NCBI GenBank assembly: GCA_001563335.1
Contig: LRSL01000077.1
Coordinates: 1 to 41,462, forward strand
Source: Candidatus Thorarchaeota archaeon SMTZ1-45
GTDB lineage: Archaea > Asgardarchaeota > Thorarchaeia > Thorarchaeales > Thorarchaeaceae
Length of the DNA: 41,462 nucleotides
Reading direction: 5' to 3'
Made by a program: the position numbers and the translations under genes. Below are positions 5,634-21,824 of this stretch, piece by piece. Below the pieces are notes generated by a model. That model did no database searches and was not told the origin of the DNA. It worked only from the letters and a program-made list of their open reading frames with translations. Numbering within the stretch: the first letter of the stretch is position 1; each line of letters begins with the position of its first letter.

Positions 5634-5741
5634 ACGATAGAAGCTAAAAGCTAAAATTGTAGTAGGATGGCGATGCTTGCAATTATCCACGTAAGGACTC
5701 CTACTCTCTCTTCTTCTTCTAAATCAGTATTTCCAGTTTGC

Positions 5742-6284: not shown

Positions 6285-7484
6285 TTATCTCTTGGCTTGT
6301 AGTTCCTTTATAGCTTCAATGATTTCAGGAACTACTGTGAAAATATCTCCCACTATGCCAAAGTCAGCGATACTAAAAATTGGCGCGTCTGGGTCTTTGT
6401 TGATAGCTACGATGACGTCACTGCTTTGCATTCCTATTTGATGTTGAATAGCTCCAGAGATTCCGAGAGCAATGTAGAGCTTTGGACAGACTGTCCTTCC
6501 TGACTGACCGACCTGTTGTGATGGTGGAAGCCATCCTAGGTCAACAATGGGACGAGAACCACCAATTGCTGCATCAAGGAGTTCTGCGAGCTGTTTTGGA
6601 AGCTCGAGGTTTGATGGGTCCTTGATTCCGCGGCCACTGCAGACGATAACATCTGCCTCCTCCACTGATTTCATACCCTCAACAGCCTCACTCACCGACT
6701 CCAACACCCGAGTCCGCACCTGCACTGGATTGATTGTCATTGGGACTCGTTCAATCTCACCATTCCTTGATGTGTCAGGTTCCAGAGGCTTGAACACATT
6801 TGGTCGAACAGTAGCCATCTGAGGCCTTGTGTATGGGGAGAGAATCTCAGCCATGATGTTTCCACCAAAGGCGGGTCTTGTCTGTACAAGCTGACGCTCC
6901 TCATCGATATCGAGTCCAGTGCAGTCAGCAGTAAGCCCAAGTGCCATCCTAGCTGCGACACGTGGAGCTAAGTCTCGCCCATTGTTGGTCGCACCAAACA
7001 GCACAATTCCAGGTTTTCTGGGAGCTATCAGCGTGTTCATAGCAATGGTATATGCATCAGTTGTATAATGGTCGAAGACCTTCTCATCAACAACAAGAAC
7101 CTTGTCAGCTCCATGATGTATCAGCTTCTGAGCATGAGCTTCAATCTCATGACCAATCAGGATTGCAACCAGCTCCTCTCCTAGCTTGTCAGCTAACTCA
7201 CGACCTTTTGCTATGAGTTCTAGTCCGACATTACGAAGACGACCATCACTGGTTTCACAGAAGACCCAGACGTTCTTGTATTGTGCAATAGCCTCTCTGT
7301 CAATAGCTTTCCTCTCAATTTTAATAGCATCGACAGGACATACCTCTTCACAGGACCCACACAGGACACATTTGTCCATGTCAAACTTGACCTTGTCACC
7401 ATCTTTTTCGATTGCATCAAAGTTGCAGACCTTTGGACAGAGCATACATCCATTGCATGTGTCCCTATCGTAATGCAAAGTCAT
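6285..7484 (-). CDS. etfA: Electron transfer flavoprotein alpha subunit with N-terminal 2x[4Fe-4S] ferredoxin domain (CarE/LctC-like architecture)
   Basis: CNGCMLCPKVC and CVLCGSCEEVCP; GLTADCT, RPAFGGN, PQMATVRP, QVGQSG, GISGAIQH, AINKDPDAPIF. Start moved to ATG 7484, 1 nt after the etfB stop. Confidence 0.95.
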   Translation of the reverse strand: MTLHYDRDTCNGCMLCPKVCNFDAIEKDGDKVKFDMDKCVLCGSCEEVCPVDAIKIERKAIDREAIAQYKNVWVFCETSDGRLRNVGLELIAKGRELADKLGEELVAILIGHEIEAHAQKLIHHGADKVLVVDEKVFDHYTTDAYTIAMNTLIAPRKPGIVLFGATNNGRDLAPRVAARMALGLTADCTGLDIDEERQLVQTRPAFGGNIMAEILSPYTRPQMATVRPNVFKPLEPDTSRNGEIERVPMTINPVQVRTRVLESVSEAVEGMKSVEEADVIVCSGRGIKDPSNLELPKQLAELLDAAIGGSRPIVDLGWLPPSQQVGQSGRTVCPKLYIALGISGAIQHQIGMQSSDVIVAINKDPDAPIFSIADFGIVGDIFTVVPEIIEAIKELQAKR

Positions 7485-7485
7485 C

Positions 7486-8280
7486 TTAGAGTGCCCCCTT
7501 CTTTGCCAAGAACTCAACGAGCTCTTTCGCCGCTGCTTTCGGGTCTTCAGCCTCTATCTTGATTCCACCTTTCTTCTTTTCAGGTGGGAACACCTTTCTC
7601 ACCTGAGTAGGCGATCCCTTCAGACCAAGCTTGTCAACATCATACCCCAGTGTTTCAGCATTGACTTCCTCAAAGGGTTTCTTCTTTGCCTGCATGATGC
7701 CCATGATATTGGGAAGACGTGGTTCGTTCAGCCCTTTGGTGGCTGTGAGAAGTACTGGCATCTTTGCTCGTACTATGTCATATCCCTCATCTGTTTCTCT
7801 ATGGGCGATGACGAATTTTCCATCCTCACTCAGCTCAAGATGACGAACATAGCATATCTGGGGCACACCCAACAACTCAGCGATCTCAGGACCTACCTGA
7901 GCTGTATCGCCATCAATTGCCTGCTTTCCACAGATGACAAGATCAAACTCCATCTTTTTAATCTGCTCTGCAAGAGTGAGTGCTGTGACCCATGTATCAG
8001 CACCTGCAAAAGCACGATCTGTCATATGGATAGCCTTGTCACCCCCCATGGCAAGGGCCTTGAGTAGTGCTTCTTTTGCTTGTGGTGGGCCCATTGTGAT
8101 TATGGTCACCTCACCGCCATACTTCTCACGTAGTTTTATTGCCTCTTCAACTGCATATTCATCGAACGGATTCAGAATACTTGGTACTCCTTCTCTAATG
8201 AGCGTACCAGTTTCCTCATTTACCTTAACGTCAGCAATCTCGGGTACTTGCTTTACAGGAACGACTATCTTCAAAGCCAG
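7486..8280 (-). CDS. etfB: Electron transfer flavoprotein beta subunit
   Basis: VKQVP, NPFDEYAVEEA, GADTWVTA, GKQAIDGDTAQVGP, NEPRLP. Start uncertain: CTG 8280 (5 nt after GGAAGTGA), TTG 8274 or TTG 8295. Confidence 0.95.
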   Translation of the reverse strand: MALKIVVPVKQVPEIADVKVNEETGTLIREGVPSILNPFDEYAVEEAIKLREKYGGEVTIITMGPPQAKEALLKALAMGGDKAIHMTDRAFAGADTWVTALTLAEQIKKMEFDLVICGKQAIDGDTAQVGPEIAELLGVPQICYVRHLELSEDGKFVIAHRETDEGYDIVRAKMPVLLTATKGLNEPRLPNIMGIMQAKKKPFEEVNAETLGYDVDKLGLKGSPTQVRKVFPPEKKKGGIKIEAEDPKAAAKELVEFLAKKGAL

Positions 8281-8486
8281 TATTTTCACTTCCAATGGTC
8301 TTTTGTGGGTCAGTTTCGAGGAGGTCCCCGATATAAGGAATACGCACTGGATATAGAATAGTGAAGAGTGTCCTCATTGATTCTTGGTGCTCTCACAACT
8401 CATAAGGACAGGAATATTCAAATGAAAGCACCTTCACTATCATGAATTCGAATTGAAAGCAACACTAGAATAGGAGTTGGTAGGAG

Positions 8487-11400
8487 ATGGCTCTTTGTTC
8501 ACTCTCATATTCTAAAGGGGTAATTATAGTAATTCTGATAGTTCTACTAGTTGGTTCTAGCAGAGATGATCAGCATTTTCAGCTCAACACGCCATCAATC
8601 GCTAAGCACTATTCCATAAGTGACTATGCAACAAGAAGCCCTATCAATGTCACAGGGGATGCGGCTTTGGATTCACTTGGTTTGCCAGGTAGTGGTAATC
8701 AGAGTCAACCATACTTGATTCAAGGTTTTAACTTCACTGACTATCCTGAGGATTCTGCTATTGCTCTGTATGACACGACACGATATGTGACCATAAGGGA
8801 CTGCCACTTTGGAGGATCATTTAAAGTATCTATTACACTCTCAGCGGCTCATAATGTGCTCGTCTTCAATAATTCATTTCAAGCACATTGGCGATCCATT
8901 TATTCTGTGGGTTGCTCAAATCTAGGAGTGATCAACAATACGTTTTCCTATCCTGTCGCTTTGTACTCGAGTCCTGGTTGCCTTTTCACTAACAACATTC
9001 TCAATCCTGTAAGAGTGTATGAAGGCCATTATATCAAAGATGCAACAAACTCTATCATTGTCAACAATACCTGTGTATCAGGTGGTATATATGTTGAAAC
9101 CGGCACAAATGTAACATTCTCTAACAATACTGTTGGAGGGAAACCAATAGGCCATTTTGAGGGGCTTCAGGACAATATAATCAACGGAGCAGATTATGGA
9201 CAAATTGGAATTAATCAGTGTAGAAATGTGACAGTTAAAGGTGGGACCTTCAACAATAATGACGTAGCTATCTGGGTTGTTGATAGTACAAACTGTACAG
9301 TCCAGGATGTTAATACCTATAACTGCTGGAGTTCTGTAGGATTCAGTCGATGCAACCAGTCATTTGTATTCAATGCGACAGGTGGTTTTCTGTCATCGAT
9401 TTATGGAGTTTCGATTTCCGACTCCCAAAATATCATTGCAAGGGATTGTGAATTCACAGCATGTGGTTACTATGGAGTATCAACATGGAATTCAGAAAGA
9501 GTGACAATTATTGATAATATGTTACAGAATGGAGGATGGGGCATTTATGTGTATGAGTCATCTCAATTAGAGGTGGCCAACAACCAAATAATTTCAAACA
9601 ATATGGGACTTGAGGTGTCTATAAGTCAAGACATTCAAGTGATTGGAAATGCTATTCTTGATTCTCAAGAGTATGGGATCTTACTAAATCAAATCACAAC
9701 CGACTCAGTTCGTCTGTCTAACAATAATGTGACTGGAGGAACAATTGGAATCGAGGTCGAGAACTCAAGTGATGGCCCACTCATTGAGAACAACACAATC
9801 AACAGTGGACAAAATTATGGTATCAATCTCGAGCTGTCAACCAACGTCACAGTTCGGTTAAATAATTTTTCAAATTGTGGACTTGGCATAAATGGCTTGA
9901 TGTATACATCCCAGTTTGTTCACGGCGATATTCAACTATGGAAACATCAGATTAATGGAAACACCGTGAACACCCACCCACTTGTTTATCTGAGGGAGGC
10001 TAGTGATCAAGCAGTGGACCCATCTGCTGGACAAGTCTGGCTCATAGACTGCGACACAATAAGTGTTCTTAGTCTGAACGTTTCGAATTCAGGAGTCGGT
10101 TGTGGAATAGCACACAGCAGTAATATCCATGTGTCTGGACTCATATCCGACTTCAACATATGGGGTATATTTCTTACCTCTACTTATTCCTGCACTGTAG
10201 AGTTCAGTAGATGTAGCTTCAATGTAGAAGGCATCTATGGGCAGGTTTCAACAAATCTTCGTATTCATAATAATACATGCAAGTACAATGATGAGAATAT
10301 GGTCGTCTTGGGGGGTCCTGGGCTCACTGTGACATCGAATGAATGTGGTCACAACACGGGTGTGGGAGTTCTAGGGAGTTACGGATCCATTGGAATACAG
10401 GGTTGCAGCCACGCAGATATTTCTAACAACACATGTTATGATGCTTGGAGTGGGATATATGTTTCAGGGTTTAATCAGGAAAATGTGAGTATTTCTGGAA
10501 ATAACTGCTATCAGACAGGTGCAGGCATATGGACATCCTCACTATCAAACAGCTCTGTTGTGGATAACTTCTGTCATGATAGTGGGGAGGGTGTTGGCGT
10601 TTGGCTCTGTTACAACATCACACTTCTATCAAATGTCTTCTCGGAAATAGTTGACACAAATGTCCATGTGTATCATGGATCAGACAATACACTTGACAGT
10701 AACCACTTTGGAGGATGTACTTATGCTACAGTATTCTTTGAAGCTTCACCTGATGGTGCTATAAGAAACAATAACCTTACTGGTGATGCGCCAATCGGTA
10801 TCCAACTCAAGGACTCTCCACGCGCTTCAATCTACAACAACACCGTGGACATTGTAGGGTCTTTAGGGTCAGTAAGTGTCCTTCTTAATGACTCATCAGA
10901 TTGTATTTTACAAGAGAATTTGATATCAGGTGCAATTAATTTCGGGATTCATTCTTTCAACTCAACTAATACAATATGCAGAAACAACACGATAATGAAC
11001 TGTGCGAATGATGGAATTTGGTTCGACTCCTCAGTGGATGGTCAGGCAGACTCTAACTGGATAAGTGATTGCCTTGTTGGGATTCACGATTCATTCTGCA
11101 ATACCTCTATTCATATTACAAACCAGATTAACAATTGCTCTAAGGGTATCTTTCTCCAAGAGTCGCGACAATCACACACAGAGTATAATATCCTGTTTGA
11201 CAACATTGTTGGCATCGAGATCGAATATTCCTACAACATTATCTTGTCCCACAACAATATCAGTTATTCCCAGTCCAATGGCTTTACTCTCAATAATGTG
11301 GATACATGTGCTATGACTGATAATCTCATTCACAACAGTATAGATACTGGCCTTGCTATTTACCAGTCTCAATATGTTACCGTTACAAACGGTACATTCT

Positions 11401-12476
11401 ACTCTAACGGACAGTCAGCATGTGTGTTGATTGAGTTTTCAAACAATTGTGTTCTATCTGACTGTGAAGTAAGGGACAACTCTTACGGTGGTGTGTATCT
11501 GGAGTCATCCACGGACTGCCTCATCATCAACAACGTGATTATGAACAATCTACTCGATGGAATACGGATCATGGGATCTAGCAACCAGAACACGGTTTAT
11601 GGCAACACACTGGCACTCAACATTGGTGGAAATGGAAAGGACTACGGGATAAATAATGCATGGGATGATGGTATGGGAATAGGTAATATTTGGGATGACT
11701 ATTCGGGTACAGGAGTGTACCAAATTCCTGGTTCTGCTGGAAGCATTGACCACTACCCACTCCTCTACGATATCAACAGACCAAGTATTGATAGCCCGGC
11801 CGACATATACTATGATTATGGAGCAACTAACCAAATCATCACATGGTCGTGCAGTGATGACAATCCATCCTTATTCTATGTATTTGTTAATGGCACTCAG
11901 ATTAATCAAGGTGTTTGGGATGGTAGTAACATCTTCTTCAATGTTACAGGACTTACACCAGGTGTATACGACTATACCTTGCTTATCTATGACTTGGGAG
12001 GAAATTATGCATCCGATTCAGTTCTTGTTATTGTAACTGGTCCAGCACTCCCAAGTATAATAGGAGCTCCCATAGAATCGACAACGATTGAAGTCGGAAG
12101 CTCTGAGAGTGTACTTACCTGGAACGTGGTCACTCCGTTCCCGAACAACTATCAGATTCTTGTCAATGGAACTGTTGTGCAGGAAGGAGATTGGGATGGG
12201 TCTGCGATTACGTTTGGATTGGGTCAACTGAGTGTGGGGTTGTATAACATTACATTAGTGGCATATGATGAACTCGGAAACTTCGCAAGTGATTCAGTAT
12301 GGGTACAGGTGAATCCTTCTTCTTTGGATTTGACGCAAATACCAATATCACAGATTGTTGCTATAGCAGCACTTTGTATACTTGGATACTTTGGCTACAG
12401 GATTCTTGCTCATAGCAAGAAACAGAAGTCAGAATCAGATTGGAGAGAGATGTTAGACGACTTCGGACGTTACTAG
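8487..12476 (+). CDS. Large membrane-anchored right-handed parallel beta-helix (NosD/CASH-like) surface protein with two C-terminal Ig-like repeats
   Basis: N-terminal hydrophobic signal, many N-x-I-x-N-N/GI-x-L beta-helix turns, GNIWDDYSG cap motif, two Ig-like repeats (IITWSCSD...WDGS..., VLTWNVV...WDGS...), C-terminal TM helix and short charged tail. Confidence 0.9.
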   Translation: MALCSLSYSKGVIIVILIVLLVGSSRDDQHFQLNTPSIAKHYSISDYATRSPINVTGDAALDSLGLPGSGNQSQPYLIQGFNFTDYPEDSAIALYDTTRYVTIRDCHFGGSFKVSITLSAAHNVLVFNNSFQAHWRSIYSVGCSNLGVINNTFSYPVALYSSPGCLFTNNILNPVRVYEGHYIKDATNSIIVNNTCVSGGIYVETGTNVTFSNNTVGGKPIGHFEGLQDNIINGADYGQIGINQCRNVTVKGGTFNNNDVAIWVVDSTNCTVQDVNTYNCWSSVGFSRCNQSFVFNATGGFLSSIYGVSISDSQNIIARDCEFTACGYYGVSTWNSERVTIIDNMLQNGGWGIYVYESSQLEVANNQIISNNMGLEVSISQDIQVIGNAILDSQEYGILLNQITTDSVRLSNNNVTGGTIGIEVENSSDGPLIENNTINSGQNYGINLELSTNVTVRLNNFSNCGLGINGLMYTSQFVHGDIQLWKHQINGNTVNTHPLVYLREASDQAVDPSAGQVWLIDCDTISVLSLNVSNSGVGCGIAHSSNIHVSGLISDFNIWGIFLTSTYSCTVEFSRCSFNVEGIYGQVSTNLRIHNNTCKYNDENMVVLGGPGLTVTSNECGHNTGVGVLGSYGSIGIQGCSHADISNNTCYDAWSGIYVSGFNQENVSISGNNCYQTGAGIWTSSLSNSSVVDNFCHDSGEGVGVWLCYNITLLSNVFSEIVDTNVHVYHGSDNTLDSNHFGGCTYATVFFEASPDGAIRNNNLTGDAPIGIQLKDSPRASIYNNTVDIVGSLGSVSVLLNDSSDCILQENLISGAINFGIHSFNSTNTICRNNTIMNCANDGIWFDSSVDGQADSNWISDCLVGIHDSFCNTSIHITNQINNCSKGIFLQESRQSHTEYNILFDNIVGIEIEYSYNIILSHNNISYSQSNGFTLNNVDTCAMTDNLIHNSIDTGLAIYQSQYVTVTNGTFYSNGQSACVLIEFSNNCVLSDCEVRDNSYGGVYLESSTDCLIINNVIMNNLLDGIRIMGSSNQNTVYGNTLALNIGGNGKDYGINNAWDDGMGIGNIWDDYSGTGVYQIPGSAGSIDHYPLLYDINRPSIDSPADIYYDYGATNQIITWSCSDDNPSLFYVFVNGTQINQGVWDGSNIFFNVTGLTPGVYDYTLLIYDLGGNYASDSVLVIVTGPALPSIIGAPIESTTIEVGSSESVLTWNVVTPFPNNYQILVNGTVVQEGDWDGSAITFGLGQLSVGLYNITLVAYDELGNFASDSVWVQVNPSSLDLTQIPISQIVAIAALCILGYFGYRILAHSKKQKSESDWREMLDDFGRY

Positions 12477-12570: not shown

Positions 12571-13440
12571 TTATTTGTGTACTAAATGTTGTAGGATAGG
12601 TATTGCAGAAACCCTGTTCATCTCAAGCCCCACCTCACTCTCATCAAGACCCATTGCAAGGCCGAGTATCTGCGGATAGAGAAGGACTGGGAGGTTATAC
12701 TCCTCACCATAAGACTCCTTCAGACCCAGCTGTTGCAGGTCAAGTTGATTGCAACAAGCAGGACAAACGACAGTAATAAAAACCGCTCCTGCTTCCTTCA
12801 TTGATTTGAGCTTGTCCCGAGCGAGTCTTATGGCTAGATCCTCATCTACAGGGAGCACAGTGGCACCACAACACTGTTTCCACAAGGGATACTCGATGAC
12901 CTGCGCGCCAGTGACTCTCATAAGTTCATCCAGAATAATTGGAGTGATTTCAGTAACATCTGTAGGTCGAAGAACATGACATCCATAGTGAATCGCTATA
13001 CCAACACCATCAAGGGGTCTTGTAATCTTCTTTCTTATGGAGTCAATACCAACATCTGCATGGAGGACCTCTATGAAATGACGTGGTCTGCTTATGCCCT
13101 TAAACTCAAAACCCTCTTGTTTCAATTCATCGTTGACCTTTTCTCTGGTTTTTGTATCATGCCTTAGAAGATGATATACATCTTTTAGACTACCAAAGCA
13201 ACCATTACAAGGAGTGACGACATCGTGTCCAATTCTGTCAGCTATCGCAAGGGTACGAGCGTTCACTTTCAACCAACCTAAATAGTCCATTGCTCTCAGA
13301 TTTGGACTGCCACAACATGCCACATCTTCTAAGTATTCTAGTTCCAGTTCCAAGATTTCTGCGACACGACACATGGACGCTTCATAGTTGGGATAGTTCG
13401 CAGGCACGCTGCAACCCATATAGAGGCTATATTTGGGCAT
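12571..13440 (-). CDS. hdrB: Heterodisulfide reductase subunit B (copy 2)
   Basis: Two CCG domains: YMGC...CCG...PCNGC and HYGCH...CCGA...CPAC. Start set to ATG 13440 directly after the hdrC stop. Confidence 0.93.
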   Translation of the reverse strand: MPKYSLYMGCSVPANYPNYEASMCRVAEILELELEYLEDVACCGSPNLRAMDYLGWLKVNARTLAIADRIGHDVVTPCNGCFGSLKDVYHLLRHDTKTREKVNDELKQEGFEFKGISRPRHFIEVLHADVGIDSIRKKITRPLDGVGIAIHYGCHVLRPTDVTEITPIILDELMRVTGAQVIEYPLWKQCCGATVLPVDEDLAIRLARDKLKSMKEAGAVFITVVCPACCNQLDLQQLGLKESYGEEYNLPVLLYPQILGLAMGLDESEVGLEMNRVSAIPILQHLVHK

Positions 13441-13441
13441 G

Positions 13442-13984
13442 TCACTTCCCCTCCTTGACAAGTCGACCAGTGCGAGTTTCACTTAGGATTTTTTTCACAG
13501 GATCCGTTGAGAGACCTGGCACCTCCGGTTCGAGATCCAAGTCTTCCCGCTCCCAATCAGCAGTGACTGTATATAGCTGACCCTTCTCAATGAGCTCCTT
13601 TCCAAGTGCGATGATACTACTTGGAACACTTCCCTCTTCAGCTGCAAGGTTCTTGCAGTCAAAGAAGATGTCTGTAACGCGTACAAGTTGAGGACATCGT
13701 TCCTGACACTCAAAGCATGTCAAACAGAGCCAGATTTCCTTCGAGGAGAGCACCTTTTCCCTCATCCCAAGGAGAATCATCCGAATCAACTGATGCGGTT
13801 TGATGTCCCAGACATTTGCAATTGGACATGCAGCTGTACAGGTTGAGCAAGCAAAACATGCAGATAGATCTTCGGCATTTGGCATGCTTTGTATCTCTCT
13901 TCTAAAACCTAGGTCAAGCTGTGACATGTCAATTGGGTCAATAAGAACTTCTGGAGGGGTTATCTTGTTTCGAGTTTCAGTCAG
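13442..13984 (-). CDS. hdrC: Heterodisulfide reductase subunit C (copy 2)
   Basis: CFACSTCTAACP and WLCLTCFECQERCPQ. The track starts at ATG 13927, but the frame is open back to CTG 13984, which overlaps the hdrA stop (CTGA) and lies 7 nt after GGAGGTG. Confidence 0.93.
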   Translation of the reverse strand: MTETRNKITPPEVLIDPIDMSQLDLGFRREIQSMPNAEDLSACFACSTCTAACPIANVWDIKPHQLIRMILLGMREKVLSSKEIWLCLTCFECQERCPQLVRVTDIFFDCKNLAAEEGSVPSSIIALGKELIEKGQLYTVTADWEREDLDLEPEVPGLSTDPVKKILSETRTGRLVKEGK

Positions 13985-16014
13985 GTTGATGCACCTCCAG
14001 ATGTCTTTTCTGCCTGCTCACGTTTTTTGTGAGCTGAAATGAGACCGAGAATCTCAGCCTCTATCTGTTCGGTCGTGAAATGCCTTCGCGAGATGGCTCC
14101 CGTGGGACACACAACCTGACACTTTCCACAGCCTGTACAGAGGATTGAACTGATTTCTGCCAGTTCTTTTTCGTCATCTGTGACAGTCATAGATATTGCA
14201 GTGAATGGACAGACCTTCTCGCAGAGACCGCACCCTATGCAGAGGGCATCATCAACAACCGCCTTGTCCATCTGCACTCGGACCCTGCCCTTGAGCACAT
14301 GTGACGCGGCTGCACTTGCTGCAGCTTTTCCGTCAGCGACGCTAGCAGGGATATCCTTAGGGCTCTGACAGGCTCCAGCGATGAACACACCTCTTGATTT
14401 TGTGTTCACCGGTTCGAGTTTTGGATGGAGCTCCTTCATGAAGCCCCCTTCACTTCGATCCACACCAATCATATGTGCAAGATGAGCTGCTCCCGGCGAT
14501 GGGTCTATAGCCATGGTCAGGACTACCATGTCAAAGTTGAGACGTAGTAGACTACCTGTCCCTTGATCGAAGACGGTGAAAGAGATACTTCCATCCTTTT
14601 CTTCAGTCATGTCACTCGGGAACCCTCGCACGAATCGTACTCCACTCTCACGCACTCGTCTGTAGAACTGTTCATACTCTTTACCTCCAGCCCTGAGCTC
14701 ATGATAGATAATCCATTGTTCAATGTCATCAGGATACAATCTTTGAGTCATCTCTGCATGTCTGAGTGTGTACATGCATCCAAAGTTGCAACACCAGGGG
14801 CGACGATTCTCATCTCTTGAACCTGCACAGTTGATATACGCTATGCGTTTGGGAGGCTGCTCAAACTTCGGTGGGATGAGTATCTTACCCTCAGTTGGTC
14901 CCACCAGACTTAGTAAGCGACCATACTGACCTGCGGTTACCACACGGTCAAATTTGCCTCCCCCATATTCAGGCAGTTCCTTGATGTCCATCTCTATGAA
15001 TCCTGTTGCAGCAACGATTGCACCAACAGTGATCTCAATCTCTTCCTCTTCAACATCATATGAGATGGCATCACTGGGACACTTCTCGGAACAGATAGTG
15101 CAACCATCGGTCCAGTGAGTGCATGATTCCCTGTCAAGGAAGAACACTCCTGGAACCGCTTGTGGAAAGGGTTTGTAAATCGCCTTTCTCTCCTCAAGTC
15201 CGAGATTCCACTCATCAGGGCCTTTTGCAGGACAGTTTCGTTCACAAGCTCCACAGTTGATACATTTCTCTATGTCAACATATCGAGGGTATTTCTTCAC
15301 GCGTACCCTGAAGTTACCATAGTCCCGTTCAACCTCAATGACCTCTGAATAGCTGAGAAGCTCAATATTCTTGTGACGTTCAACTGCAGATAGTTTGGGA
15401 GAGAGAATACACATCGAGCAGTCAAGTGTAGGGAAGGTCTTTTCCAGACGGGCCATATAACCTCCGATTGACGTGTACTTCTCTACGAGGTATACCTTGA
15501 TGTCCTTGTCAGCAAGGTCAAGCGCAGATTGTATTCCGGCTATGCCAGCACCTATCACGAGAACACTCTTTTCCACCGGATATTCCTCAAATCCAATGTC
15601 TTCCAGCTTCTTTGCCCGTTCAATCGCAGCCACGACAAGGTCGTAGGCAACTTTGTATGCCTCTTCTGGGTTGTCGTCATGGATCCACGTGTCATGTTCT
15701 CGAAGGTTTGCCTGAGCCAAACGGAAGGGATTGAGACCATTCTCTTCAAGAATCTCTCTGAATAACTGTTCATGGAGCTTTGGCGTGCAAGCGCCAATAA
15801 CAACACCGGTGAGATTGTGATCTTTGATCTGCTTGGCTATTGTGTCCTGTCCATCTTTTGAGCAGGTGAACATGTTGGATGTAGTGAACACAACACCTGG
15901 ATAGTCCTTAAACTCCCGGGCAAGCTTCCTGACATTGATTACACCACCAATGTTAGTCCCGCAGCTACAGATGAAGACTCCAATACGATCTTCCGTGTCC
16001 TTCTTTTTTGTCAA
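13981..16014 (-). CDS. hdrA: Heterodisulfide reductase subunit A, full length
   Basis: N-terminal CSCGTNI domain, GAGIAG FAD motif, KTFPTLDCSMC, inserted 2x[4Fe-4S] domain, CAGSRD...CCNFGC, C-terminal 2x[4Fe-4S] domain. TTG start 9 nt after GGAGGTG. Confidence 0.95.
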   Translation of the reverse strand: MTKKKDTEDRIGVFICSCGTNIGGVINVRKLAREFKDYPGVVFTTSNMFTCSKDGQDTIAKQIKDHNLTGVVIGACTPKLHEQLFREILEENGLNPFRLAQANLREHDTWIHDDNPEEAYKVAYDLVVAAIERAKKLEDIGFEEYPVEKSVLVIGAGIAGIQSALDLADKDIKVYLVEKYTSIGGYMARLEKTFPTLDCSMCILSPKLSAVERHKNIELLSYSEVIEVERDYGNFRVRVKKYPRYVDIEKCINCGACERNCPAKGPDEWNLGLEERKAIYKPFPQAVPGVFFLDRESCTHWTDGCTICSEKCPSDAISYDVEEEEIEITVGAIVAATGFIEMDIKELPEYGGGKFDRVVTAGQYGRLLSLVGPTEGKILIPPKFEQPPKRIAYINCAGSRDENRRPWCCNFGCMYTLRHAEMTQRLYPDDIEQWIIYHELRAGGKEYEQFYRRVRESGVRFVRGFPSDMTEEKDGSISFTVFDQGTGSLLRLNFDMVVLTMAIDPSPGAAHLAHMIGVDRSEGGFMKELHPKLEPVNTKSRGVFIAGACQSPKDIPASVADGKAAASAAASHVLKGRVRVQMDKAVVDDALCIGCGLCEKVCPFTAISMTVTDDEKELAEISSILCTGCGKCQVVCPTGAISRRHFTTEQIEAEILGLISAHKKREQAEKTSGGAST

Positions 16015-16929
16015 TTAGGATTGCACCTCCAGTTTCCCCCGCACAGGGCTGGGTCCCAGATTCTTGATTCTCTCAACAAACTCTGTCACTATTTCAGCGA
16101 ACCTAATACCCATGGCCGCTGAGGCGAAGTCAATGTACAGTCTGCCGCCCAGACCAATCTCCTCAAAAATACTCTGCCAGAATTTGACGAAGTCAGCCTG
16201 CATGAAGTTACCAGCCAATGGGTCATCACCACCATAGTGACATTCTGAGAGAAGGCATCCAGTCACTAGAACCCCGTCGACTCCGTTCTCCAATGCGGTC
16301 ATTATCTGAATGGGTTCCACCGCTCCACTACAAGGCACTCTTACTGTTCGAATATTTGTGGGATAGTGTAGATGCATCAGCCCTGCTAAGTCAGCTGCTG
16401 CATGAGAGCACTCCCAACACACAAAGCAGATTATGAATGGCTCCCAATCATGAATCTCTACGACTGGGGGTGGTTCTACTTCGCCAATGACGCTCACTAG
16501 ATCATATGTCTTCTCCAGTGAGAGACAGTCTTCTTTGCAGGCTTCAACGCACTTGTTACAGGCAATACACTTCTGAGCTGACCAAGAGATAGAACCATAA
16601 CCAGGAAGTCCTTCAGGAACAGAGATGGTCTGAACCTCGCCATTCTGTTTCAGTACTTGCAACAATGAAACCAATGACTCACGATTCTTTGACCTAAAGC
16701 CTTCTTCGGGTATCACTGCGTTAATATACTCTGGAAGTCTAAGTGAAGGTTCCAGCTCGAGAGCCTCAACTTCGCATGCCTCAATGCACTTCTTGCAAGC
16801 ACTACATGAGGGCGGTATATAGCTGATAGTGCCAAATCCCTCAACCTTTTCCGGGACTTCCAAGATTCGAGTGGGTGTCTTCACTGCAATGTTTCGTATC
16901 TTCTGAATGAGCCGTTCTCGCTTATCCAC
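16015..16929 (-). CDS. mvhD: Ferredoxin-MvhD fusion (two [4Fe-4S] motifs plus [2Fe-2S] MvhD/FlpD domain)
   Basis: CSACKKCIEAC and CIACNKCVEAC, then FVCWECSHAAADLAG, RVPCSG, GVLVTGC...CHY, LGPSP. Confidence 0.88.
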   Translation of the reverse strand: MDKRERLIQKIRNIAVKTPTRILEVPEKVEGFGTISYIPPSCSACKKCIEACEVEALELEPSLRLPEYINAVIPEEGFRSKNRESLVSLLQVLKQNGEVQTISVPEGLPGYGSISWSAQKCIACNKCVEACKEDCLSLEKTYDLVSVIGEVEPPPVVEIHDWEPFIICFVCWECSHAAADLAGLMHLHYPTNIRTVRVPCSGAVEPIQIMTALENGVDGVLVTGCLLSECHYGGDDPLAGNFMQADFVKFWQSIFEEIGLGGRLYIDFASAAMGIRFAEIVTEFVERIKNLGPSPVRGKLEVQS

Positions 16930-18886
16930 GCAGCTCCACCTCCTTCTGCATCTTCTCAGGCGTTGCTGCCATCATATACGTGGCTCTCACCCGATCTGGG
17001 TCTTGCCCAACCTCACGCAGCATCTCCCTGGTGAGTTGGACCACGAGTTCTGATAGATGATCACCAGTCTGGTGATGACACCCACCAGGTGGGCAATGTG
17101 CCACAATGACTCTTTCAGCCCCTACAACCAGACCTTTCAGAATCTCAATTGGAGAAACCATCCCAGCACAGGGAAATTGGATTACATATGTTCCTGAGGC
17201 ATAGCTCTTGCCAGTAAAACCAGCTTGGTCAATAGAGGCATTTGCACACTCACTGCAGGCATAAACAAGTGTGAATGGTTTATTCCTCTCAAGGTGACTG
17301 TGAGTTTTCGCTATTGTTTCGAGTCTAGTAAACCAGCTCTCCTTGCTGTGAGACTGAAACTCTATGGCTCGAGTTGGACAGGCGGACACGCAAATGCCAC
17401 AAAACTCACAATGGACTGGAATGTGTATTACTTTGTCCTCGAACAGTCGCAAGGCATCATTTGGACAAGCTGTTATACATGCCTTGCACACATCACAGCT
17501 CTCGTCATCAATGAGTGGTGTCCACCCGGAATGTTTCAAAGGCGACCTGACTACTTTGAAAGCCTCCAAGACTGCATTCTGAGCTGAAACCAGAGCGTGA
17601 GAGAGGTCCATTACTGTCTTTGCACCTCCAGCAATGAAGATACCTCTTCGAGAGGTCTGTACAGGTTTCATCTTACTGTATCTAGTCTTAATGAAGCCGT
17701 TATCATCACATTCTACACCCAAAGCTGCAGCGAGCCGAGTCGTGTCACTGATTGGACCGACAAGCTCATTGATTGCGAGTGTGTCTACTGTGACCTCTCT
17801 CACTATCGACTCAAGTCTGTTCTCAATTAGACAGGTCAATCCACCATCATGCTCTTTGACCTGTTTCACATTACCACGCAAAAAGATGACCCCTGAGTTA
17901 CGAGCTCTGCGATATAGGTTCTCATCATCTGTCTGGATGTCTGAGTGTGATACAAAGATGATATTGCCCTGGCTAGCAAGCTCTTCGGTCATTCTCAGGA
18001 GATGACTGCCCTCAGCTGAAGACATTTCGACATCAGGGTCAGTAACGACCAAGATGTTGGAGCCCTTCTTTGCGTTTTTCTTTCCTGATCTAGTGACCAA
18101 GCTCTGTAGAGTAAGGACCCTCTCGGATTTTCCATAACGACATTTCTTTGCTATGTTAGGAATGTATTGCTGAGTGCCTGTGGCGATTATGATAGCCCCG
18201 TAGTCTTGTGTGGTTAGGTTGTCCTCAGAGTCTTTCCACGTAATCTCATATGACCCCATTTGCCCCTCAATCTCTTGCACATACCCCTGAGCCCGCTCCA
18301 CACCAGATAGTGATTTGTGAAGCGTCTTGAGCATTTGGGCTAGTGTTTCTTTATCACTCATGAAGAAATGGTCTTCGTAGTACTTTTCATCATTCTGACC
18401 TGGAGGTTCCAGAAGGGTTACCCCAACTCTTAGCTTCTGGAGGTCGGATGCAGCTTTTAGCCCAGCAATTCCGCCACCAATAATGAGAACTCGTTCAATC
18501 ATGTTCTCATTGAACTCAATTGGAGGCTCCATATAGTCCAGCTGTAATGCGGCATCCGTTAACAGTACTATCGCTTTACTGGTTGCAGACTTGCTATCCT
18601 CAGAGTGCACCCAAACAACATGTTCTCTGAGAGGGACAAAGGAAATTAAATCGGTCTTAAGTTTCTCTTTCACTGGGATGCCAATGATTTGAGAGCTGCA
18701 CGCTCCAATTGCTACTTGATCACCATTTGAAACACTCTTCTTAATCTTGGTGAGCCCATCTTCCAGACATAAACTGTCTACGGTTTCAATCGTATCGAAT
18801 GCCTTGGCGACTTCCTTCTCGACCTTAGAAAAGTCTACGGTCTTGTTTAGTGTATTATTACAGGTACAGAGAAACAGCTTCTTCAT
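16922..18886 (-). CDS. Divergent HdrA-like flavoprotein fused to ferredoxin and MvhD (QmoB-like architecture)
   Basis: N-terminal CTCNNT...C...GACS...REHVVWVH domain, GGGIAG, GIFIAG, CDVCKACITACP / CEFCGICVSACP, MvhD-like ACSECA...PCAG...CPPGGCHH. The DCxxC motif, inserted ferredoxin and CxGSR cluster motif are absent. Confidence 0.88.
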   Translation of the reverse strand: MKKLFLCTCNNTLNKTVDFSKVEKEVAKAFDTIETVDSLCLEDGLTKIKKSVSNGDQVAIGACSSQIIGIPVKEKLKTDLISFVPLREHVVWVHSEDSKSATSKAIVLLTDAALQLDYMEPPIEFNENMIERVLIIGGGIAGLKAASDLQKLRVGVTLLEPPGQNDEKYYEDHFFMSDKETLAQMLKTLHKSLSGVERAQGYVQEIEGQMGSYEITWKDSEDNLTTQDYGAIIIATGTQQYIPNIAKKCRYGKSERVLTLQSLVTRSGKKNAKKGSNILVVTDPDVEMSSAEGSHLLRMTEELASQGNIIFVSHSDIQTDDENLYRRARNSGVIFLRGNVKQVKEHDGGLTCLIENRLESIVREVTVDTLAINELVGPISDTTRLAAALGVECDDNGFIKTRYSKMKPVQTSRRGIFIAGGAKTVMDLSHALVSAQNAVLEAFKVVRSPLKHSGWTPLIDDESCDVCKACITACPNDALRLFEDKVIHIPVHCEFCGICVSACPTRAIEFQSHSKESWFTRLETIAKTHSHLERNKPFTLVYACSECANASIDQAGFTGKSYASGTYVIQFPCAGMVSPIEILKGLVVGAERVIVAHCPPGGCHHQTGDHLSELVVQLTREMLREVGQDPDRVRATYMMAATPEKMQKEVELRG

Positions 18887-20155
18887 CTAAGCACCTCCCT
18901 CTAAGTCTAGGTATACCTGTAATGCCACAGAGTTTGCCTCAGCTACACTGGTAGGAATGTCAGTGGGTCCAGTGGATGTACCGCAGGCATAGATTCTTTC
19001 TCTAGGGTCTTGATGGGAAATGAATCCATGCTTATCGAGAATAGAGGTGAACTCTTCTCTTTCAGATGCAAGAGGTATAAGTGATGAGGCTAAAACAACA
19101 AGGTCAGACTCAATCTCTAATCGTTTCTTTGACTCTGTGTCCTCTACAATGGTTAGTAGTGAATCACCTCGAATTGTCACTTGGTCGGGCTTTCCGCGAA
19201 TAAACTTAACACCGAGCTCTCTCGCAAGAGTGAGATAGTGTTGACTGTGCAAAGGAACTCGCAGATCCATGTAACAAAGTGTAACGTTAACTCCAGAGTT
19301 TTTCAACATAACTGCATGTTTGAGGCTATATGTACAGCAGGCCTGGGAGCAGTATTCGGCAGCATTCAAATCCCTGCTCCCAGCACAGAGTATCATTGTA
19401 ACGGAGTTCACAGATTTCCCTGATGCTGTGAGAACTGCGCCATTGGTAGGACCGGTGGAGTCTAGAAGACGTGCAAGCTCCCGTTGAGTCAGCACATCTT
19501 GATACTCACCATACTCATACCCTGACAAATTACTTGGGTTTCGTTCTTCAACGCCAGTCGCAATAACTACAGCGTCAGCAGTTATAGAGCGGCTTGTTCG
19601 TTTCTGCTCGAGATTGATGGCGCCCACTCCACAGACATCTACGCATTTCCCGCATTTCGTACAAGACTCGATATCAATCACAGGAATGAGAGGAATAGCC
19701 TGTGGAACAGGTCTGTAGATTGCTTTCCGATTACGCCTTCCAAGATTCATCTCATCAAGGACTTCAACATCGCATACATTGATGCATTCTAGACACACAA
19801 CACAGCGGTCAGGTGAAACTAGTCTTGGTTGAGACCGCAACGACAGAGAGAACTTCTTTCCATTCTTCTTGATGGATTTTATATCTGTCAAAGTATGAAG
19901 GGTCAATCCCTTCTGTGTTCCGAGCAGCGTTCTATATTGGCAGCGGCGATGTTTGCCATCGTATAACTCCTCGCAGACATCAAGGCAGAGCGCGCAGTCA
20001 TCAGTAGGGAATACTTTACCAAGGTGAGCTGAAAGACCTCCAACGGTCGCTTCCTTTTCAACAAGATGTACTCTCATCCCAAGATCAGATAGCTGTTGAG
20101 CAACTTGAACACCAGCAATTCCAGCACCAACCACAACAACGGTCTTGACCATCAC
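18887..20155 (-). CDS. Truncated HdrA-like flavoprotein (QmoA-like length, retains inserted ferredoxin)
   Basis: Begins directly at VVVGAGIAG; KVFPTDDCALC, CVVCLECINVC, CTKCGKCVDVC, CAGSRD...CSQACC; lacks the N-terminal domain and C-terminal ferredoxin. Confidence 0.88.
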   Translation of the reverse strand: MMVKTVVVVGAGIAGVQVAQQLSDLGMRVHLVEKEATVGGLSAHLGKVFPTDDCALCLDVCEELYDGKHRRCQYRTLLGTQKGLTLHTLTDIKSIKKNGKKFSLSLRSQPRLVSPDRCVVCLECINVCDVEVLDEMNLGRRNRKAIYRPVPQAIPLIPVIDIESCTKCGKCVDVCGVGAINLEQKRTSRSITADAVVIATGVEERNPSNLSGYEYGEYQDVLTQRELARLLDSTGPTNGAVLTASGKSVNSVTMILCAGSRDLNAAEYCSQACCTYSLKHAVMLKNSGVNVTLCYMDLRVPLHSQHYLTLARELGVKFIRGKPDQVTIRGDSLLTIVEDTESKKRLEIESDLVVLASSLIPLASEREEFTSILDKHGFISHQDPRERIYACGTSTGPTDIPTSVAEANSVALQVYLDLEGGA

Positions 20156-21054
20156 TCACCAACTCCTATTTTTTCAAGTAAGGGTTCTATTTTCACTCGA
20201 TGATACCTTCTTGAATTGCTGACCACAAGGTCTGTCAGACCCATAGCAAGAGCTAACATCTCTCCCAAGTATAAGACGGGCATATTGAGTTCTGTATCTA
20301 GATACTCGATGGCTTTCCTCTGCTGCATCTCGAGTTGTGTGTAGCAAGTGGGACAGATTAGAACAATCGCATCTGCACCTGCATCACTTATTTTCTGAAG
20401 CTTCTGGGCAGTGAGCTTGAACGACTTTGACTCATCGGAAGGTCCTATAGGAGCACCACAACAAGCCATCTTATCCTTGTATTCCACTGGCTCTGCGCCA
20501 ACAACTCTGATTAAATCCTCCATCCATTGTGGATTCTCTGCATCATCCATGTATGTTGCTTCAATTGGTCTGACAAGGTGACACCCATAATGAGAGGCTA
20601 TGGAGAGACCCTTGAGAGGATGAGTTATTTTTTTCGCGATTTGATCCAAGCCAACATCCTCATGTAGTACATGAAGTATGTTCTTCACAGTGACTTCCCC
20701 AGTTGCCTGCATTCCAGCATTCTTCAGTCTCTTGTTGACCCTTTCTCGTATATCTGAATCTGTTTTGAGCGTGTGTTTCACAACAGACAATGTGTGAAAA
20801 CAACCACTACATAGAGCAACCGTGTCACGAGAACTTGCCTCGCTCACAGCAATATTTCTAGCGCCTATTGTGAACCAAGCTTCAATGTCCACACCAGGGA
20901 ATGTGGTTGGTTCAGGACAGCATGTGTGCCCCTCGTCTGTTACTAGCTCCACATTCAGACGGTTCAGAACCTCTCTCATCGTGAGTTCAAAGTGTGGAAG
21001 TCTGAAGGGGATAGTACAGCCAGGGAAATAGGTGTACTCAATTGACTTACTCAC
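20152..21054 (-). CDS. hdrB: Heterodisulfide reductase subunit B (copy 1)
   Basis: YFPGC...CCP...CSGC and HYGCH...CCGA...CPTC. Start set to GTG 21054, 6 nt after GGAGGTG. Confidence 0.93.
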   Translation of the reverse strand: MSKSIEYTYFPGCTIPFRLPHFELTMREVLNRLNVELVTDEGHTCCPEPTTFPGVDIEAWFTIGARNIAVSEASSRDTVALCSGCFHTLSVVKHTLKTDSDIRERVNKRLKNAGMQATGEVTVKNILHVLHEDVGLDQIAKKITHPLKGLSIASHYGCHLVRPIEATYMDDAENPQWMEDLIRVVGAEPVEYKDKMACCGAPIGPSDESKSFKLTAQKLQKISDAGADAIVLICPTCYTQLEMQQRKAIEYLDTELNMPVLYLGEMLALAMGLTDLVVSNSRRYHRVKIEPLLEKIGVGE

Positions 21055-21574
21055 CCTCAGCACCTCCATATCTAGATTCAACAGATTCAACCCGTTCAAC
21101 AGTGCCTAGTTCCTTGAGGATTTTACCAAGCTGTGCAACTGGAGGGGGTCCCAAACTCGGTAGCCCCATCTTTTCACGAGTCTTATGCATTGGTTCGCTA
21201 ACTAAGATTGTGCGTCCCTCTGACAGAATGGCTCGTGCTCTATCCAGAGCTGTCTGAGGTGTATTTCCAGAAAGAAGACCCCTTACTTTGGCGAGTACTA
21301 GGATCTCTGGTATCTTCACATGCTCAGGGCATCTGACTTCACACTGTTCACAGGTAAGGCAAGTCCAGATCAGCCGCTCCTGCGCTAACGATTCATCTGC
21401 TAGAATAAGCTTCTCTAGAAAGAGTCGAGGGTTGAAAGACTCATCTATCATTGCGATTGGACAGGCAGCAGTGCACCTTCCACATTGGTAGCATCTCAAT
21501 AGCGTCTTACCCTCTGGTTGCAGAAGAATCCACTTACGAAATTCAAGGTCAGAGGATATACCATGATCCGTCAT
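21047..21574 (-). CDS. hdrC: Heterodisulfide reductase subunit C (copy 1)
   Basis: CYQCGRCTAACP, FNPR, IWTCLTCEQCEVRCPE. Start set to ATG 21574 (track uses TTG 21625). Confidence 0.93.
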   Translation of the reverse strand: MTDHGISSDLEFRKWILLQPEGKTLLRCYQCGRCTAACPIAMIDESFNPRLFLEKLILADESLAQERLIWTCLTCEQCEVRCPEHVKIPEILVLAKVRGLLSGNTPQTALDRARAILSEGRTILVSEPMHKTREKMGLPSLGPPPVAQLGKILKELGTVERVESVESRYGGAEGE

Positions 21575-21824
21575 AATATTCAAACCTTGTAAACTGGATG
21601 TGAATTCTCGAGTTAAGCGTCCCAAAAAGAATGTCGATTTGTTTAGGGATTATGTAACAACTGAATTTGCGCTTCATAGGAAAGAGCATCATGGATAGTG
21701 TTTGTATTTGAGAAGACCCATTTCATCACTAGATGATGCAATATCTTTCCGTACATAATCCTTTTATTAGTGTACTAGCGCTAACCGAAATAGTTCCTTT
21801 AACAAATAGAGGAGAGTAATCACA

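Follow-up and report, generated by a model that had tools for sequence, protein, structure and literature searches.

An accessory Thorarchaeal Hdr-type gene cluster with a split HdrA pair and a putative ferredoxin-MvhD adaptor, and how its proteins may fit together

How might a set of heterodisulfide reductase (Hdr)-type proteins be supplied with electrons when no gene for a known donor module lies beside theirs? This question is raised by eight genes in a stretch of 41,462 nucleotides, referred to here as the window, which is contig LRSL01000077.1 (C77) of Candidatus Thorarchaeota archaeon SMTZ1-45. The genome amounts to 3.54 Mb in 119 contigs and is ~88% complete, and the homologues of the window proteins that carry names belong to Thorarchaeota or Promethearchaeota. 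In the list of open reading frames (ORFs), the eight are co-directional on the minus strand, from 21625/21574 down to 12571, in the order hdrC1, hdrB1, hdrA', hdrA''::mvhD, Fd::mvhD, hdrA3, hdrC2 and hdrB2; the products of the third to the sixth are also called A1q, A2qD, FdD and A3 below, and the last two genes together C2B2. A first-pass annotation, made from the letters alone, had described eight packed or overlapping genes in this order, with two intact HdrBC pairs, three HdrA-like flavoproteins and two MvhD domains. The ORF list, Pfam, NCBIfam and a motif script bear out this inventory, and a Pfam scan of the 23 other ORFs of the window agrees with its further statement that known donor modules are absent, since no MvhAG, FdhAB, Flx, FrhB or MetVF is among them.

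The answer that we favor, at about even confidence, is that the operon encodes one composite soluble Hdr-type flavin/iron-sulfur assembly, with the HdrA3 side as its electron-input module. A single asymmetric super-complex had also been suggested by the first-pass annotation. The conservation of the gene block, the complementarity of HdrA' and HdrA'', and a predicted docking of FdD on HdrA'' take that suggestion as far as plausible.

A divided HdrA and a putative ferredoxin-MvhD adaptor

The three HdrA-type proteins differ in the elements that they carry. HdrA3 aligns over its full length to solved HdrA (8rvu/5odc; E 1.6e-181 to 8.4e-179), and the motif script finds in it the N-terminal cysteines, the motif FPTLDCSMC (the Cys197 equivalent), the inserted ferredoxin, a CAGSRD...CC...C cluster and the C-terminal ferredoxin. 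The window protein is without a fused MvhD and without an NfnB/GltD insertion, PF14691 not being detected by Pfam. The other two divide the same elements between them. A1q aligns to solved HdrA (9sfi/5odc; E 1.7e-73 and 8.8e-70) only over residues 144-565 of the latter; it begins at the FAD motif and keeps the FAD domain, the Cys197-equivalent FPTDDCALC, the inserted ferredoxin and a CAGSRD...C...CC cluster, with both the N-terminal domain and the C-terminal ferredoxin missing. A2qD has the N-terminal cluster domain (C7, C9, C40, C63), an FAD motif, a C-terminal 2x[4Fe-4S] ferredoxin (Pfam Fer4 at 457-510) and a fused MvhD (FlpD/MvhD at 540-650), and here it is the Cys197 motif (FPTxDCxxC), the inserted ferredoxin and the CxGSRD cluster that are all missing. 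The cluster cysteines of A2qD are invariant across 29 orthologues. Its relatives at 55% identity or above, where named, come from Thorarchaeota/Promethearchaeota and in one case from Sifarchaeia, the next among the matches listed lying at ~30%.

According to the available text of Chadwick et al. 2022, the same complementarity of N-terminal domain and Cys197 occurs in tandem hdrA genes of methane-oxidizing (ANME) archaea, where it is taken to mark an obligate heterodimer; fused complementary paralogues are described there too. A1q and A2qD likewise have the N-terminal domain and Cys197 on separate adjacent proteins, in the manner of the HdrA5/6 and 12/13 pairs of that study, and by this analogy they would form an asymmetric HdrA'/HdrA'' heterodimer. 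Jointly they would hold one each of the N-terminal cluster domain, the Cys197 ligand, the inserted ferredoxin, the HdrC-facing cluster, the C-terminal ferredoxin and the fused MvhD. Such a pair would be half as symmetric as the (HdrA)2 of methanogens, with one MvhD path, one HdrBC path and one ferredoxin site, which fits the single HdrB1C1 encoded next to it.

Two HdrA-like proteins of this kind could also be seen as parts of a Qmo-like (QmoAB-HdrCB) module for dissimilatory sulfur metabolism. The QmoAB-HdrCB arrangement is found in Gram-positive sulfate reducers, and the 422-aa protein and the 654-aa MvhD fusion beside hdrCB have a QmoA/QmoB-like architecture: a short HdrA-like protein and a longer one with a C-terminal MvhD-like domain. 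HdrC1 and HdrC2 even match the N-terminal part of the qmoC model weakly. However, these matches (NF038018) reach 47 and 63 bits where the cut-off is 300, and cover only the first ~100 of 360 model positions, with no membrane part and hence no counterpart of the membrane haem-b subunit QmoC. The best AprA match in the genome (TIGR02061), at 46.6 bits, misses the cut-off of 641.75, DsrC was not found in it, and none of the named A2qD relatives among the 120 matches listed is called Qmo. Given the qmoC scores below cut-off, the missing DsrC and the lack of AprA above cut-off, this reading is rejected as very improbable.

The protein that would connect the two halves of the cluster is FdD. Its residues 160-300 match MvhD as solved in Hdr complexes (E 6e-30 to 3e-23; Pfam MvhD at 166-292), and its N-terminal domain is a split 2x[4Fe-4S] ferredoxin with the cysteines C42/45/48/52 and C121/124/127/131. 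As its alignment reveals, this domain is internally duplicated, a helix, a GFG strand and a CxxCxxCxxxC motif following each other twice. In a sequence comparison with the PDB, no solved relative of the N-terminal 160 residues emerged apart from matches to the 25-residue cluster motif. The domain family is small, with 56 matches (E ≤ 0.001) among 1.84 billion cluster representatives. The AlphaFold2 model of FdD, with a mean pLDDT (predicted local distance difference test) of 64 and values below 50 for residues 44-122, is too poor for a fold search.

Members of this split-ferredoxin family occur in several contexts: as free-standing proteins of ~160 aa, after an MvhD in reversed domain order, at the C-termini of ~740-aa proteins, and in a 972-aa NfnB-like protein. 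In the members P0242-P0263, P0244, P0247 and P0277, Pfam detects generic Fer4 only.

A possible partner of this domain was sought by complex prediction, pairing residues 440-654 of A2qD (the C-terminal ferredoxin plus MvhD) with residues 1-160 of FdD as cut domains with custom alignments. The three runs scored 0.80, 0.78 and 0.78, giving a median of 0.78, and the highest-scoring of three controls stood at 0.09. A score of 0.78 is attained by 116 of 157 solved complexes and by 2 of 215 mismatched pairs, counts that are rough given the custom alignments. Contacts agree between the runs to 97% or more, and the pLDDT of the partner is at least 78. On the FdD side, the predicted interface consists of residues 43-47, 79-111 (corresponding to the second repeat's helix) and 132-133, which are more conserved than the remaining domain (0.81 vs 0.65, Mann-Whitney p = 0.003); on the A2qD side it consists of residues 463-473, 502-506 and 578-628. 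The prediction supports, without demonstrating, a docking of the FdD N-domain on the MvhD/C-terminal-ferredoxin end of HdrA''.

A conserved block with variable surroundings

A scan with one genome per species gave 28 loci, titled Thorarchaeota, Promethearchaeota or uncultured archaeon, on which the eight proteins were mapped by tblastn. The genes for C1-B1-A1q-A2qD-FdD-A3 stand in the same order in 20 of them, the other eight (L005, L008, L010, L013, L021, L025, L027 and L028) being interrupted by contig ends or N gaps, and in none of the 28 are the halves of the cluster separated. The order of the first six genes read from this one stretch holds in its relatives. The block hdrC1-hdrB1-hdrA'-hdrA''::mvhD-Fd::mvhD-hdrA is a conserved but accessory, family-specific unit of six genes, and the eight-gene form of the window is one variant of it.

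One of the interrupted loci deserves a comment. L025 is a 'chromosome' record in which two stretches of N, each exactly 100 long (5619-5718 and 9667-9766), flank the sequence upstream of FdD, with other genes (a class I tRNA synthetase, peptidases) beyond the second gap. Probably its upstream half fell into a scaffolding gap and is not truly absent; owing to the N runs, L025 is uninterpretable as a locus with different upstream genes and was set aside in this respect.

The restriction to one family is evident from FdD. Full-length relatives were found only in Thorarchaeota, as 46 full or near-full clusters at 61% identity or above plus two shorter fragments, and below those the matches are to MvhD only, covering ~45% of the query. 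Among 400 genomes of the phylum, FdD is full-length in 27 and partial in 2 more, all within the family of the window (86 genomes), and the 314 other Asgard genomes yield matches to the MvhD domain and no full-length FdD. Even within the genus of the window it is present in only 15 of 28 genomes, several of those without it being 93-97% complete.

What follows the block is less constant. The C2-B2 pair comes after A3 in 12 loci (L001-3, 6, 7, 9-12, 19, 26, 28), is missing despite continuing sequence in six (L015, L017, L020, L023, L024, L025), and has its place unreadable in ten. The two HdrBC pairs of the window are distant paralogues (B1/B2 37.7% and C1/C2 29.7% identical), and hdrB1 is at most 38% identical to each other HdrB of the genome compared. 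Instead, hdrC2 and hdrB2 share 81% and 76% identity with their counterparts in a cluster on contig C69 (L032:5844-14258, minus strand) with the order hdrC-hdrB-short hdrA (416 aa)-hdrA::mvhD (721 aa)-760-aa iron-sulfur protein-acyl-CoA dehydrogenase. The 721-aa HdrA::MvhD of this cluster is single-copy in 84 of the 86 family genomes, for which reason we regard it as the core Thorarchaeal Hdr cluster. In a quick-method tree of concatenated HdrC and HdrB from 19 core and 11 window-type clusters, the C2B2 of ten genomes form one clade (Shimodaira-Hasegawa-like approximate likelihood ratio test, SH-aLRT, 99) inside an unresolved polytomy with the core pairs, and that of the L019 genome stands apart, beside a group of core pairs that includes the one of its own genome (support 92, not decisive). 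C2B2 is thus a copy of the core hdrCB that arose within the family and was recruited behind hdrA3 once, possibly twice. A tandem duplication of C1B1 is ruled out at only 30-38% identity, and the "doubled" operon of the first-pass annotation is better described as a six-gene block that has received a pair from a different, core cluster in some of its carriers.

The 760-aa protein of the C69 cluster has weak winged-helix-like matches and, at its C-terminus, a split-ferredoxin domain related to the N-domain of FdD. Unlike the accessory cluster, the core 721-aa protein tracks genera: genus g1 holds both an FdD form of at least 87% identity and one of 70-74% (the latter with the NAD(P)H insertion described below), and g12 holds forms of 88%, 80% and 76%. 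Such a pattern hints that the accessory cluster was transferred or differentially lost within the family.

A second variation lies in HdrA3 itself. In L015, L017, L019, L020, L023 and L024 its orthologue is a single ORF of 1134-1138 aa, and L022, cut by a contig end, gives the same split match. The insertion (~460 aa) was judged by length or split tblastn matches in L015, L019, L020, L022, L023 and L024 and by Pfam in L017, where Fer4_20 and a complete Pyr_redox_2 identify it as an NfnB/GltD-like NAD(P)H module within the ferredoxin domain. In L015, L017, L020, L023 and L024 the enlarged HdrA3 (1134-1135 aa) stays in the block and no HdrBC comes after it. This feature of HdrL, or type III HdrA, is absent from the HdrA3 of the window and present in the L017 orthologue, as well as in a paralogue of the window's own genome on contig C109, which is 1128 aa long and 41% identical to the L017 protein over the full length, insertion included. 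In a quick-method tree of HdrA3, the insertion-free orthologues form one clade (SH-aLRT 100) and the insertion-bearing ones a basal polytomy; the outgroup branches are long, and a search for homologues yielded no close outgroup.

Besides the 1128-aa type III HdrA, the C109 locus (L029:78-19261) contains a 1151-aa fused double HdrA::MvhD with hdrC-hdrB, two more hdrCB pairs and an HdrA-like protein of 684 aa.

A proposed composite assembly and its rivals

Taken together, these features can be arranged into two modules joined by an adaptor. Module 1 would consist of the HdrA'/HdrA'' heterodimer with HdrB1C1 as its single disulfide-reducing unit, and module 2 of the canonical HdrA3. FdD would be the adaptor between them: by comparison with solved MvhD-HdrA complexes its MvhD domain would serve HdrA3, which has none of its own, and its split-ferredoxin N-domain is predicted to dock on HdrA'' as set out above. 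In the electron path published by Chadwick et al. 2022, as far as its available text describes it, electrons pass from MvhD to the C-terminal ferredoxin, to FAD, and then either to HdrBC or, by way of the N-terminal cluster and then the inserted ferredoxin, to free ferredoxin. The corresponding wire of the assembly would run from the FAD of A3 through its C-terminal ferredoxin to the [2Fe-2S] cluster of the FdD MvhD, over the two [4Fe-4S] clusters of FdD to the MvhD and C-terminal ferredoxin of A2qD, and on to the flavin of A1q/A2qD, where one branch would lead to HdrB1C1 and the other, via the inserted ferredoxin of A1q, to ferredoxin.

The HdrA3 side would act as a built-in electron input, and the lack of an attached hydrogenase, formate dehydrogenase or Flx gene would be accounted for in this way. 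In the sister form with the insertion, HdrA3 would take electrons from NAD(P)H to reduce a disulfide and ferredoxin, or the reverse, as an NAD(P)H:disulfide/ferredoxin bifurcating or confurcating system, a scheme put forward for Flx-Hdr and for HdrABC/HdrL as well. In the form found in the window, module 2 may exchange electrons with a thiol/disulfide couple and/or ferredoxin through C2B2. Both the direction of electron flow and the substrates are what we infer for this assembly.

At the level of the superfamily, the features of a soluble HdrABC with MvhD are present. The motif script finds two complete CCG motifs (C-x(n)-CC-x(n)-C-x2-C), of the kind that binds non-cubane [4Fe-4S] clusters, in each HdrB, with the cysteines C28, 60/61, 97, 100 and 173, 213/214, 249, 252 in HdrB1 and C24, 56/57, 92, 95 and 168, 204/205, 240, 243 in HdrB2, and two CxxCxxCxxxCP motifs apiece in HdrC1 and HdrC2; the full set of HdrA elements is found in HdrA3 and, divided, in HdrA'/HdrA''. 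The window proteins miss all the cut-offs of the NCBIfam equivalogs for coenzyme B-coenzyme M (CoB-CoM) heterodisulfide reductase (TIGR03288, TIGR03290, NF040770, NF041778): HdrB1 and HdrB2 score 269 and 272 bits against 345 (TIGR03288), HdrC1 and HdrC2 73 and 92.5 against 160 (TIGR03290), and HdrA3 723.5 against the 1100 of the HdrA equivalog. They are members of the superfamily, and not callable CoM-S-S-CoB reductases.

Several points weigh against the composite assembly. The window form has two HdrBC units, with ferredoxin on either side, and its net reaction is thermodynamically unclear. The sequencing runs listed as containing this stretch are of DNA, and none is of RNA. The complex score is the model's own confidence, obtained from cut domains with custom alignments for one protein pair, and on the A2qD side the interface is no more conserved than the remaining fragment (0.80 vs 0.80). 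The contacts of FdD with HdrA3 and of HdrA' with HdrA'' would follow from homology only. C2B2 is a variable component, present in 12 and absent in 6 of the 18 evaluable loci, and its exchange for the NAD(P)H module is not a clean swap, as L019 carries both; moreover, the HdrA3 tree would need one insertion change, and does not fix whether this was a gain or a loss. As for the substrate, neither DsrC nor ComA (PF02679) was found in the ~88%-complete genome, where other coenzyme M routes and coenzyme B synthesis were not searched. Finally, each half of the cluster is formally a complete HdrABC-MvhD set that could act alone.

This last point leads to a different reading, in which the genes encode two independent, co-transcribed Hdr complexes, HdrA'A''(MvhD)-B1C1 and HdrA3-FdD-B2C2, fed in trans by MvhAG, FdhAB or a lone FrhB-like protein. 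Apart from the full HdrA/B/C and MvhD set in each half, it can draw on the 53-nt gap ahead of hdrC2, an inspection by eye of this gap and of the upstream region having revealed nothing decisive, and on the fact that the genome does encode MvhAG, FdhA/FdhB-like proteins and a lone FrhB-like protein with a ferredoxin domain (C82:6135-7232). Yet the first two donors have partners of their own, MvhAG both mvhD and hdr genes and FdhAB an mvhD. Furthermore, the FdD N-domain is predicted to bind HdrA'', HdrA3 and FdD are kept in the block in six relatives without the second HdrBC, and no related locus has the halves apart. We therefore consider two separate complexes a possible but rather unlikely outcome.

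The genome as a whole has ~21 CCG proteins, 10 MvhD domains and at least seven Hdr loci. MvhA and MvhG are encoded in a cluster of the order hdrA'-hdrC-hdrB-hdrA-mvhD-mvhG-mvhA, and FdhA and an FdhB-like gene adjoin their own mvhD; in its set of genes, a second [NiFe] hydrogenase resembles a group-3b enzyme. Since MvhAG and FdhAB each stand beside their own mvhD and the second hydrogenase is group-3b-like, there is no obvious orphan donor for the cluster. The separately encoded donor considered by the first-pass annotation is in this respect left with one candidate, the lone FrhB/FdhB-like gene on contig C82 (L075:6135-7232, plus strand), whose 365-aa product has an N-terminal 2x[4Fe-4S] domain and is a possible trans-acting redox partner. 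This gene adjoins one for GTP cyclohydrolase II, and no hydrogenase, Fdh or Hdr gene was found near it.

A NuoF-like gene was not found in the genome. There is an NfnAB-like pair on contig C23, and three DHODB_Fe-S_bind matches lie on other contigs, namely C23 (beside the NfnB-like gene), C31 (in the group-3b-like hydrogenase locus) and C26.

Returning to the composite assembly, its adaptor may be given a more specific role. FdD could be an MvhD-to-MvhD bridge, each half of the split ferredoxin docking on one MvhD, which would tie two flavin-bifurcating HdrA modules into a single supercomplex. In the form found in the window it would couple two different thiol/disulfide couples (at the core-type HdrB2C2 and at HdrB1C1), with ferredoxin shared as the low-potential partner and no conventional two-electron donor; docking on MvhD would then be the general role of the related domain in the 760-aa C69 protein. 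We regard this proposal as speculative and doubtful. If true, it would place two bifurcation or confurcation sites in series, a mode that to our knowledge has not been demonstrated for any Hdr.

The remaining candidate donor lies in the window itself, where etfB and etfA encode an electron-transferring flavoprotein (Etf) downstream of the cluster (Table 1). In this case, a bifurcating-type EtfAB would be the donor or acceptor, working with NADH or, via acyl-CoA dehydrogenase, with acyl-CoA, and HdrB2C2 would be the Etf-oxidizing unit. This Etf is the only one found in the genome. It belongs, by sequence, with the bifurcating group: EtfA matches five bifurcating Etfs at 1.4e-110 (CarE, including the ferredoxin domain) to 3.1e-83 and non-bifurcating ones with a strength of at most 5e-47, EtfB matches the bifurcating ones at 8.6e-70 to 4.2e-58 and the others at 5.4e-35 or weaker (the references for the bifurcating group being CarDE, Bcd-Etf, LctBC and EtfABCX), and the N-terminal ferredoxin domain of EtfA is as in CarE and LctC. 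In five close relatives (L001, L002, L003, L007, L009) etfB follows ~70-360 nt after hdrB2 on the same strand (in L001 and L009 at ~70 nt), C2B2 has its closest paralogue, on C69, in a cluster adjoining an acyl-CoA dehydrogenase gene, and clusters of an HdrD-like hdrF with etfBA are reported in the accessible literature on Desulfobacterium autotrophicum.

However, the adjacency is confined to one sublineage of six genomes including the window, and thus amounts to about one evolutionary event, and in the window the two are not direct neighbors, a 4-kb opposite-strand gene lying between hdrB2 and etf. Etf is found in 65 of the 86 family genomes with or without the cluster, 20 other Thorarchaeal Etf loci have no Hdr or acyl-CoA dehydrogenase gene within ~8 kb, and L010-L012 and L026 carry C2B2 with no Etf nearby. 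An Etf-fed system is for these reasons clearly unlikely, and the neighboring Etf that the first-pass annotation had put forward as a donor loses most of its appeal.

The layout of the window genes is given in Table 1. Junctions within the cluster are overlaps of 4 to ~50 nt or direct abutments, the 53 nt between hdrA3 and hdrC2 being the sole gap. The start of hdrC1 is probably the ATG at 21574, giving 175 aa: orthologue matches begin mostly at residue 18, and the first-pass annotation had ended the operon at the same ATG. The opposite-strand gene between hdrB2 and etfB encodes a NosD-type protein and looks recently inserted, because etfB comes directly after hdrB2 in the five close relatives.

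Table 1. Features of the cluster and its neighborhood in the window
Feature	Coordinates	Strand	Product	Basis
hdrC1	21047..21625	-	192 aa from TTG, HdrC-like 2x[4Fe-4S] subunit	Pfam Fer4_8/Fer4_17
hdrB1	20152..21099	-	315 aa, HdrB with two complete CCG motifs	PF02754 twice, E 9.8e-31
hdrA' (A1q)	18887..20155	-	422 aa, QmoA-like short HdrA	Pfam, PDB alignment, motifs
hdrA''::mvhD (A2qD)	16922..18886	-	654 aa, QmoB-like HdrA with fused MvhD	Pfam, PDB alignment, motifs
Fd::mvhD adaptor (FdD)	16015..16929	-	304 aa, split-ferredoxin N-domain and C-terminal MvhD	Pfam
hdrA3 (A3)	13981..16014	-	677 aa, canonical full-length HdrA	PDB alignment, motifs
hdrC2	13442..13927	-	161 aa	Pfam, NCBIfam
hdrB2	12571..13482	-	303 aa, two complete CCG motifs	PF02754 twice
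NosD-type gene	8487-12476	+	1329 aa, NosD/right-handed beta-helix repeat protein	
etfB	7486-8295	-		Pfam
etfA	6285-7517	-	with N-terminal ferredoxin domain	Pfam

Relation to described systems and meaning

The nearest described gene set, likened by gene content and not by sequence relatedness, is Sfum_0819-0824 of Syntrophobacter fumaroxidans, which in the accessible text comprises hdrABC together with an iron-sulfur protein, MvhD and HdrL, and whose products turned up as a set in the proteomes of sulfate-grown cells; HdrL1-3 with mvhD are described for D. autotrophicum. As far as these accounts go, the HdrABC/HdrL clusters share with the Thorarchaeal one the combination of HdrABC with an extra large HdrA-type flavoprotein, an iron-sulfur protein and MvhD, in the absence of a catalytic subunit of hydrogenase or formate dehydrogenase, and the sister Thorarchaeal loci likewise have, within their extra HdrA, the NAD(P)H module (GltD/NfnB). 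In contrast, the HdrA3 of the window is without that module, the iron-sulfur protein and MvhD are fused and carry the unusual split ferredoxin, two complementary proteins take the place of the 'HdrA' of the ABC set, a further HdrCB has been added, and the organism is an archaeon, in which DsrC was not found.

A similar comparison can be made with the ANME archaea. The available parts of Lyu et al. 2025 describe type III (GltD-inserted) HdrA of ANME-1 in multi-hdrA clusters without any other functional gene, and those of Chadwick et al. 2022 the NfnB-inserted HdrA9-11 of ANME-1. Going by these descriptions, the enlarged HdrA3 of the sister loci, HdrL of D. autotrophicum and HdrA9-11 of ANME-1 are all the same kind of protein, type III HdrA. 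Alike are also the tandem complementarity of N-terminal domain and Cys197, the site and type of the insertion in the sister loci, and the excess of hdrA over hdrBC with no donor gene. The systems differ in phylum and in that ComA was not found here, and neither the Fd::MvhD adaptor nor a core-type HdrCB is mentioned for ANME in the accessible texts; the likeness is one of architecture and not of orthology.

The MvhADG-HdrABC and FdhAB-MvhD-HdrABC complexes of methanogens (5odc, 7bkb, 8rvu, 9sw2) are matched by HdrA3 over its full length (E ~1e-180), by the complete HdrB and HdrC motifs and by the MvhD of FdD. However, the window has no hydrogenase or formate dehydrogenase, a ferredoxin-like domain sits on MvhD at the place of the donor subunit, there is an extra HdrA pair, and the equivalog cut-offs are missed. 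FlxABCD-HdrABC (Ramos et al. 2015) provides, in the text available, a precedent for the entry of NAD(P)H through an MvhD-like subunit into HdrABC, as proposed for the sister form, and is said to occur in Asgard archaea (Imachi et al. 2020, likewise seen in part). By contrast, no FlxA/B/C is among the other window ORFs, and the NAD(P)H module, where present, is inside HdrA.

Many hdrA copies and fusions in Thorarchaeota are noted in the accessible portions of Padalko et al. 2024. A full-text literature search, with supplements not covered, found neither the Thorarchaeal gene set nor the Fd::MvhD fusion nor a recruited second HdrBC described. The cluster is an uncharacterized variant of gene clusters that are on record for sulfate reducers and methane-oxidizing archaea, and which are themselves biochemically uncharacterized. 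The first-pass annotation had offered it as an undescribed system, which holds for the gene set itself as far as that search reaches; its ingredients, namely tandem complementary HdrA, HdrL or type III HdrA, donor-less multi-hdrA clusters and the combination of HdrABC with an iron-sulfur protein, MvhD and HdrL, appear already in the published accounts just compared.

Asgard archaea are central to models of eukaryote origin that rest on an assumed handling of reducing equivalents, such as syntrophic release of H2 or formate and ferredoxin balancing. If the bridge were true, it would show how two bifurcating flavoproteins can be joined without a classical donor module, and the split-ferredoxin domain would become a handle for spotting such connections in other genomes. 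If it were not real, the operon would still be the archaeal counterpart of the uncharacterized HdrABC/HdrL clusters of sulfate reducers and ANME-1. For the Thorarchaeal family itself, the cluster is a compact example of modular evolution within flavin-based electron bifurcation, where the same six-gene scaffold comes either with an NAD(P)H port in HdrA3 or with a recruited second HdrBC.

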